64,000 nucleotides of DNA, from the IMG/VR virus record IMGVR_UViG_3300027902_000155, positions 25,553 to 89,552 of that record; one strand, 5' to 3'. Below are positions 8,431-8,860 of the stretch, one piece after another; the stretch's first letter is position 1, and every line of letters starts with the position of its first letter. A program made the translations under genes and the position numbers. Under the pieces are notes generated by a model, which saw nothing but the letters and a program-made list of their open reading frames with translations, was not told where the DNA came from and did not search any database. The stretch is from a virus.

Positions 8431-8641
8431 TGACTAGTACTAATCGCTCGTCGCAAAACGAGCAAGTTCGCAACCTGACTAACAGGAAGCCGTACCGTTC
8501 GAAAGAACTCAAGGCGCTTGCGAGACGAACAGCACGAAAGTGCGCAGACGGCGCCTGGAGGTCCAGCGCGCCAGTTCTTTACCACGGGAGGACAACGCAA
8601 TGACAAGTAACTAGGGCGATCATGCCCCGGAGTACTAGTCA
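8431..8641 (+). ncRNA. candidate structured RNA of unknown family
   Basis: 11-bp perfect closing helix TGACTAGTACT/AGTACTAGTCA enclosing at least seven nested helices, two capped by GAAA tetraloops. Confidence 0.55.
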
Positions 8642-8860
8642 ATGCCAGTCCTTGCTAAGAGCCTTACTAAGAAGGCTAAGAAGAGCAAGAAGCAGCGTAA
8701 GGTCGGACGCAACGCTGTCTTCTGCAATATCTACCGCATCACCCACCGCCGCGAGAGAAACAAGCTGATCCGCCTCGCAAAGCACCTGAAGCGCCATCCC
8801 CACGACGGGTGCGCCATCAGGGCAGCCGAGAACGCTAAGAACATCATGGGAATACATTGA
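8642..8860 (+). CDS. small highly basic protein (possible nucleic-acid binding)
   Basis: GGAG RBS at 8629-8632, 72 aa K/R-rich, phage codon bias, overlaps gp33 start. Confidence 0.7.
   Translation: MPVLAKSLTKKAKKSKKQRKVGRNAVFCNIYRITHRRERNKLIRLAKHLKRHPHDGCAIRAAENAKNIMGIH

Follow-up and report, generated by a model that had tools for sequence, protein, structure and literature searches.

What is the strongly folding stretch of roughly 210 nt that lies between a transfer-messenger RNA (tmRNA) gene and the gene for a small basic protein in a T4-like phage? It occupies positions 8431-8641 of a 64-kb window (64,000 nt, the whole stretch of DNA analysed here), which is part of the 89.5-kb IMG/VR virus record IMGVR_UViG_3300027902_000155 and carries T4-like replication and late-transcription genes. 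An earlier reading made from the letters alone (below, the sequence-only reading) saw a perfect 11-bp helix closing a multi-branched fold and offered two explanations: a new phage non-coding RNA (ncRNA), co-transcribed with the tmRNA and possibly forming a ribonucleoprotein with the basic protein, or an autoregulatory leader. Here, we argue that the stretch is very probably coding sequence plus a leader and not a free-standing ncRNA. The interior belongs to a 57-codon open reading frame (ORF), called ORF57 below, and the last ~55 nt form a conserved leader in front of the 72-aa basic protein. We assign a probability of roughly 0.7 to these identities combined with a role of the leader in translation. 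The parts of the element and the genes that flank it all lie on the + strand.

ORF57 (8430-8603) comes from the ORF list and has an SD-like (Shine-Dalgarno) GAGGA at 8421-8425, 4 nt before its ATG. Pfam, PHROG and NCBIfam hold no family for it. Nine homologous proteins, 65-78 aa long (E 1.3e-9 to 6.2e-6), are 60-74% identical to ORF57 over 67-74% of the query, and an ungapped 38-residue core is common to all nine; its 21 invariant columns are all kept in the window. Single-protein pattern scans of IMG/VR with ORF57 and with the gp33-like protein encoded downstream returned nothing, while an alignment-based scan succeeded for ORF57 and gave DNA copies from 7 viral loci and 12 genome contigs, the latter comprising 11 alphaproteobacterial assemblies and one from Steroidobacteraceae. 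The 38 core codons (8475-8588) were aligned with the homologous DNA of 18 other loci (alignment A4, 19 rows; L042, with a core identical to that of L041, was omitted). Entropies of 0.52, 0.55 and 1.25 at the three codon positions place the variation on third positions. Between the window and its 18 homologues, the proportion of synonymous differences (pS) is 0.64-0.99 and that of nonsynonymous differences (pN) 0.20-0.41; over all 171 pairs, the means are 0.66 and 0.22. By this comparison, the interior of the stretch is a protein-coding gene under purifying selection.

The same data bear on the idea that ORF57 is a decaying pseudogene kept as a structured spacer. The family's conserved core ATG is CTG in the window and the C-terminal extension of the bacterial copies is missing, as would be expected during decay. 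However, the frame is open for 57 codons behind a good SD and ATG, all 21 invariant residues remain, and pN stays at 0.20-0.41 against saturated pS. The phage copies, the window included, also share one architecture, with N-terminal extensions and a stop shortly past the core, whereas bacterial copies begin at the core ATG and add a Trp-rich tail. We therefore consider a pseudogene very unlikely. Kinship of ORF57 with its neighbour, as a degenerate paralogue of the 72-aa protein, was considered and rejected (hhalign probability 0.2%; nothing by BLASTP at E<=100). As a separate observation, the bacterial ORF57 homologues of loci L047-L056 are preceded at ~60 nt by a shared GC-rich hairpin that has a TTTT loop and lies just before the ribosome-binding site (RBS); it may be a separate conserved 5' element.

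ORF57 can occupy this place on its own. In L042, a viral locus from a related T4-like phage, a tmRNA (2071-2336) is followed by an ORF57 homologue (2429-2635) and a gp33-like gene (2632-2874; PF16805, 8.5e-19) that overlaps the homologue's stop, with no basic-protein gene. Of the six viral loci put through an Rfam search, one shows the order tmRNA-ORF57-gp33; L041 covers the L042 region in a shorter copy.

Are the helices of the interior conserved as well? Those described in the sequence-only reading are all present in the window. The minimum free energy (MFE) fold of 8425-8645 departs from them only in pairing 8574-8580 with 8587-8593 in place of GAAC/GTTC. It holds the 11-bp closing helix, a hairpin (8446-8451/8458-8463), a three-way junction closed by 8467-8473/8518-8524, two GAAA-capped hairpins (8497-8508 and 8532-8543), a 9-bp hairpin (8550-8572) and a GGGC/GCCC hairpin (8614-8627). 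Projected onto A4, the 23 internal pairs of the window are paired in 68.0% of cells, compared with 66.3 +/- 1.0% when the columns are shuffled (a level reached by 34 of 500 shuffles), and 8 pairs show double changes versus 7.0 in shuffles (185 of 500 as high). Three of the window pairs are broken in 17-18 of the 19 sequences. Slid controls reach 29-41%, but a structure derived from one row beats such controls for that reason alone. The cores of ten homologues have mutually different MFE folds, with z-scores from -3.37 to +1.05, and the 231-nt counterpart in L042 is no more stable than its shuffles (z +0.58). Comparison among homologues, which the sequence-only reading had itself named as able to refute it, thus went against its first explanation: because homologues conserve the protein encoded by 8430-8603 while the helices of the window are not kept, we regard the ~210-nt ncRNA, with or without a bound basic protein, as largely refuted.

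The features that suggested an ncRNA are nonetheless striking: the multi-branched shape, two GAAA tetraloops, the position behind a tmRNA and the stability of the whole. The 221 nt of 8425-8645 have an MFE of -82.6 kcal/mol, compared with -62.1 +/- 4.35 for shuffled sequences (z -4.71; 0 of 200 as good). We placed this value in the phage's own background with 123 windows of 221 nt over the 64 kb, which gave a mean z of -0.22 (standard deviation 1.29); three of the 123 were at or below -3.8, the lowest at -4.8. The z-score of the stretch lies in the tail of this phage's distribution, yet other windows, within ordinary genes, match it. The scan's most stable 221 nt (10921-11141; z -4.8, MFE -91.8 kcal/mol) are in the 5' part of a gp32-like gene and may be a translational operator or merely structured message; 54081-54301 and 37441-37661 reach z -4.2 and -3.9. 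Dissecting the stretch shows that the fold signal sits mainly in its 3' end. The leader segment 8586-8656 alone folds at -30 kcal/mol in a family-like way (z -4.42, matched by 0 of 200 shuffles), whereas z is -2.18 for the interior 8442-8599 (7 of 200) and -1.36 for the conserved coding core at 8475-8588 (19 of 200). Most of the overall z-score is thus contributed by the leader and the closing helix. The sequence-only reading recognised no RNA family here, and Rfam 15 agrees: its models, which include RNase P, 6S, SRP, GOLLD, ROOL, manA, introns and riboswitches, gave no match within 8433-8634 at E<=10 (7800-9200 searched), and a search of 8415-8660 at E<=10 gave 0 matches. Taken together, a free-standing RNA gene is barely tenable.

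What stands of the second explanation is a leader, but one confined to the last ~55 nt and not ~210 nt long. By sequence comparison, 8586-8641 is the window copy of a leader found before nearly all relatives of the 72-aa protein. It begins with an SD-like GGGAGGA (8586-8592) within the last codons of ORF57, at the same place as the SD of the family leaders. This serves a mini-ORF of ATG, three sense codons and TAG (M-T-S-N-stop, 8600-8614), whose ATG (8600-8602) overlaps the TGA of ORF57 (8601-8603) as ATGA and which ends 27 nt before the ATG at 8642. The last base of its TAG is the first base of an apical hairpin, GGGC/6-nt loop/GCCC (8614-8627), and GGAG (8629-8632) precedes the main ATG.

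We compared the window with 22 distinct upstream regions of 72-aa relatives (n=23). Twenty of the 23 leaders combine a strong SD with a mini-ORF of 2-4 codons, usually M-T/R-x-x, that ends 22-41 nt before the main ATG; three of these mini-ORFs (L025, L027 and L031) were identified by eye, the SD being weak or cut by the contig end. The exceptions are L035 (a 10-codon ORF), L034 (a 13-codon ORF) and L017 (none). Under a strict rule, an SD plus a mini-ORF ending 15-45 nt upstream, 17 of 23 leaders qualify versus 0 of 131 other ATG-ORFs of the window. In 18 of the 20, the first base of a 4-7-bp hairpin is no more than 2 nt away from where the stop codon ends. In five leaders (L011, L022-L024 and L029) we also noticed that the mini-ORF frame has another ATG 18 nt further upstream, served by a separate SD, which creates a nested upstream ORF of 9-10 codons that contain the mini-ORF SD.

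The hairpin covaries. RNAalifold on a MAFFT alignment of the leaders (A2) returned no structure, owing to misaligned gaps, and a loop-centred, ungapped alignment was used instead (A5, 14 leaders with six-base loops; L005, L025 and L028 have five-base loops and L023 is near-identical to L011, and these were left out). Within A5, 84.7% of cells pair, compared with 62.9 +/- 3.1% after shuffling (0 of 500 as high) and 31-53% for slid partners. The covariation score is 0.604 versus 0.198 +/- 0.045 (0 of 500 shuffles), with double changes in 6 of the 7 pairs. Between the C and G that close it, the loop has the consensus A-A-U-C/U-C-C. A second pairing recurs below the hairpin: in 15 of 20 leader MFE folds, the start of the mini-ORF pairs with bases just before or overlapping the main ATG, and when the window leader is folded alone, 5 of the 7 bases of the mini-ORF start region are paired. 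The mean z of the 20 leaders is -3.74 against mononucleotide shuffles. A covariance model built from 10 leaders recovers the non-seed leaders L005 (33.9 bits), L029 (29.2) and L027 (20.7), and at E<=10 it finds nothing in the window beyond the seed copy at 8597-8644. Rfam has no match to ten family leaders at E<=1. It is probable, with some reserve, that this mini-ORF/hairpin leader couples or controls translation.

In the window, another partner is possible for the leader's 3' strand. The perfect 11-bp closing helix, read directly from the sequence and found again by an inverted-repeat search, joins a 5' arm at 8431-8441, which is bases 2-12 of ORF57, to a 3' arm at 8631-8641; the arms are 11 nt each, 100% complementary and separated by 189 nt, and pair probabilities along the 5' arm are 0.91-0.99. 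As the sequence-only reading had stated, the helix overlaps the RBS region and reaches the start codon: the 3' arm covers part of GGAG and ends one base before the ATG at 8642. In a wider fold, the complementarity continues to the SD of ORF57 (8421-8425 with 8649-8653). One possible partner of the 3' arm is 8431-8441; the other, as in other leaders, is the mini-ORF region (8601-8612). Folded with all of its surroundings, the arm is predicted to prefer the distal partner to the family-type pairing. When the ORF57 start region is held single-stranded, to imitate an occupying ribosome, the 3' strand switches to the family-type hairpin, at -81.5 versus -88.7 kcal/mol. Our structure predictions thus suggest a window-specific helix that may couple the translation of ORF57 and of the 72-aa gene; whether the helix is functional we judge to be close to an even call, falling just short of it.

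The helix might also be a chance inverted repeat, aided by palindromic ACTAGT/AGTACT content, between ordinary neighbour genes for which only the local family leader matters. The 5' arm itself is partly palindromic, a long-range partner is present in 0 of the 22 other leaders, and perfect 11-mer inverted repeats with 3-250 nt spacing number 7 in the window compared with a mean of 4.6 in 30 block shuffles. The location of the arms is less easily ascribed to chance: they fall exactly at two start sites, the first on bases 2-12 of ORF57 and the second on the 11 bases before ATG 8642, and their complementarity reaches the ORF57 RBS. Moreover, the 5' arm looks like the mini-ORF start, the usual partner of this 3' strand, and the window has 3 copies of ACTAGTACT where 0.39 would be expected, two of the copies being the arms. 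We take a chance origin to be quite possible, at somewhat less than even odds. That the ORF57 start is a second copy of the leader (8421-8465) was considered, since by eye it resembles the mini-ORF start minus one base, plus a hairpin; the covariance model finds none there at E<=10.

Terminal inverted repeats could also bound a mobile insertion, such as an element resembling a miniature inverted-repeat transposable element or a small intron. Excising 8431-8641 would set the GAGGA at 8421-8425 five bases from ATG 8642, and in a variant of this idea, the folded stretch would act as a spacer bridging that SD to that ATG, for which the split SD sites of T4 offer a parallel. We reject both. In L042 the locus holds a homologue of the interior without the basic-protein gene, the 89.5-kb record contains the stretch only once, a search at E<=10 gave no match to intron or ribozyme families, and the SD itself is paired in the wider fold.

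A number of observations weigh against our account as a whole. For the interior, the A4 covariation score is 0.143 versus 0.121 in shuffles (20 of 500), a weak residual signal; 8442-8599 is still somewhat more stable than its shuffles, as given above; the core of one homologue, L038, has z -3.37; and with CTG at the family start, ORF57 depends on the upstream ATG at 8430. For the leader, L004 and L033 have no apical hairpin, the start-to-start pairing is missing from the MFE in 5 of 20 leaders, and the window loop deviates from the consensus, sharing only A, U and C at positions 2-4. The window's model score of 36.4 bits is high by construction, the window having been in the seed. The register of A5 was set by the hairpin search itself, which favours pairing; we argue that it is right because the conserved loop letters fix the register independently. 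For the closing helix, the frequency class is at chance level, and no fetched relative has both genes together, so that the helix falls outside the covariation comparison.

The gene behind the leader was confirmed as the K/R-rich ORF that starts directly after the 3' arm. It encodes the 72-aa basic protein (8642-8860), for which we found 31 homologues of 64-75 aa. PF22887 (DUF7022) is matched by 27 of the 32 family members at E<=5 (best 1.8e-6), the window's own match being below the cut-off. A search of one literature library for 'DUF7022' found no paper. An AlphaFold2 model shows a basic tail and a helical hairpin (mean predicted local distance difference test score, pLDDT, 81.8); Foldseek returned nothing at E<=0.001 with it, and a wide VIA-align search gave only generic helical hairpins (best Z 5.8). 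Below significance, ribosomal protein uS15 recurs: at E 0.46 and 0.9 in hmmsearch, at ranks 5, 8 and 9 in Foldseek (E ~5), and in rows 4-6 of the Atlas structure search with template modelling (TM) scores of 0.55-0.60. Pfam Ribosomal_S15 is matched by 0 of 32 members at E<=5, and we treat kinship with uS15 as a lead only. In 19 of 23 loci, the fetched flanks of the DUF7022-like gene include tRNA genes of the same orientation. The gene is often directly behind tRNA-His, Trp, Met or Gln, a place taken by the tmRNA in the window.

Two other RNAs were seen near such genes. In L004 (IMGVR_UViG_3300046642_000884, a 185-kb viral contig), a bacterial class-A RNase P RNA (308-595; 148.7 bits, gathering score 100) lies inside the phage tRNA array, ~1.8 kb upstream of the DUF7022-like gene; a phage-borne copy would be unusual. 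In L028, a single metagenome contig, the DUF3800-VIII RNA motif (1260-1325; 52.4 bits, gathering score 40.2) lies ~130 nt downstream of that gene.

These properties raise the possibility of autogenous repression, in which the 72-aa protein would bind the covarying hairpin as its operator and the mini-ORF would provide the readout; this would add to a translational role of the leader rather than strictly compete with it. The loop letters are conserved above a covarying stem, which suggests recognition by a factor. The protein is highly basic and its helical-hairpin model is confident, and its place within tRNA arrays is consistent with RNA binding. uS15, which it faintly resembles, autoregulates through its own leader. 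All uS15 signals are below significance, however, and no family member matches the Pfam model; in addition, the window loop differs from the consensus and the hairpin is missing from two of 20 leaders. We hold autogenous repression to be rather unlikely.

How would a leader of this kind act? Building on the coding interior, on the conservation and covariation of the leader and on the alternative pairings predicted above, we infer a translational-coupling relay. Free message would keep the start regions locked in helices. A ribosome starting upstream would open these helices, terminate a few bases away and free the next start, where re-initiation could follow. The relay would run from ORF57 over the overlapping ATGA to the mini-ORF, then across 27 nt to the 72-aa gene and over an overlapping TTGA to the gp33-like gene. 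In the phage studied here, the ORF57 start would offer the leader's 3' strand a second and better partner, over 11 bp extended to the ORF57 RBS, and translation of the basic protein would consequently depend on that of ORF57. Translational bypass of the T4 gene 60 type was also considered and rejected: no take-off and landing codons that match consistently were seen, and all main ORFs have their own ATG.

Several known systems resemble parts of this arrangement. Long-range translational coupling is established in RNA phages, the 'Min Jou' interaction between the coat and replicase genes of MS2 being an example. As there, a downstream start is predicted here to pair with sequence of the upstream gene ~200 nt away and to be opened only by ribosomes translating that gene. 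Unlike in MS2, the upstream gene contributes its own start as the 5' partner, which would lock both starts together, and a mini-ORF relay lies between the genes; the host of the element is a DNA phage, and its pairing is a prediction. A second class comprises autoregulatory ribosomal-protein leaders, such as the S15 and L20 leaders in Rfam. Like these, the family leader is short and structured, has a conserved loop on a covarying stem, and lies directly before the gene of a small, basic and probably RNA-binding protein. It differs in having no match to any Rfam leader (E<=10 for the window, E<=1 for ten leaders), and the protein is not a recognised ribosomal protein. We know of no ribosomal-protein leader with an obligatory mini-ORF.

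A third class is control by leader peptides and upstream ORFs, as in erm- and cat-type leaders and in termination-reinitiation at overlapping ATGA. The short upstream ORF with a strong SD, the helices masking the downstream start and the overlapping ATGA at 8600-8603 all have counterparts there. By contrast, the mini-ORF of 2-4 codons is too short for the nascent-peptide sensors of that class, and its stop abuts a conserved hairpin. Finally, Mu-gpT-DE RNA (RF03012) weakly resembles 8384-8432 of the window, where a hairpin (8390-8408) is followed by an SD and an ATG (20.9 bits, E 0.061); this score is far under the gathering score of 49, and the match lies upstream of the element and outside it.

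With regard to the wider locus, the adjacency to a tmRNA noted in the sequence-only reading is borne out. Rfam places a two-piece (permuted) alpha-type tmRNA gene at 8041-8328 (RF01849; 96.6 bits, gathering score 50), and a second tmRNA model, RF04321, matches 8082-8287 (74.1 bits); the tmRNA is the sole Rfam match of the whole window at gathering scores. ARAGORN reported 0 tmRNA genes in the window, although both Rfam models score well over their gathering thresholds; permuted phage tmRNAs can escape the standard finder. In a pattern scan, no terminator on the + strand turned up from the tmRNA to 9081, and for this reason co-transcription of the tmRNA with the downstream small genes is plausible on sequence grounds. 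On the 3' side of the element, the gp33-like late-transcription coactivator gene (8857-9081; PF16805, E 1.5e-13) is listed with a TTG start codon that shares bases with the stop of the 72-aa gene; gp59-like and gp32-like ORFs, their translations judged by eye, come next. Searching GenBank phages by blastn with 8000-9100 gave no match. The low-GC syntenic relative L006 (6147-7394) has a tmRNA, a 71-aa ORF, a tRNA and then a gp33-like ORF (by eye), with neither ORF57 nor a DUF7022-like gene; the slot between tmRNA and gp33 is thus variable.

These results remove a false lead, in that a strongly folding, multi-branched stretch with GNRA loops beside a tmRNA proves to be coding sequence plus a leader. 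The modestly new part is that leader and not a new RNA gene: a covarying motif new to Rfam that precedes a phage protein family travelling with tRNA arrays. Two uncharacterised families of small basic proteins lie in the translation-related corner of T4-like phage genomes, and the window offers one testable instance of predicted long-range coupling between two start sites. One may speculate further, although we think it unlikely, that the leader is an undescribed phage riboregulator: the DUF7022-like protein, transcribed together with tRNA or tmRNA genes of the phage, would bind the conserved loop because it imitates the RNA that the protein normally targets, and would thus adjust its own abundance by way of the ribosome relay; the ~200-nt helix would extend the operator so that one switch governs the two small proteins between the tmRNA and the late-transcription coactivator. 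If it is true that the leader is an operator for its own protein, it would provide a handle on what this tRNA-array protein binds.

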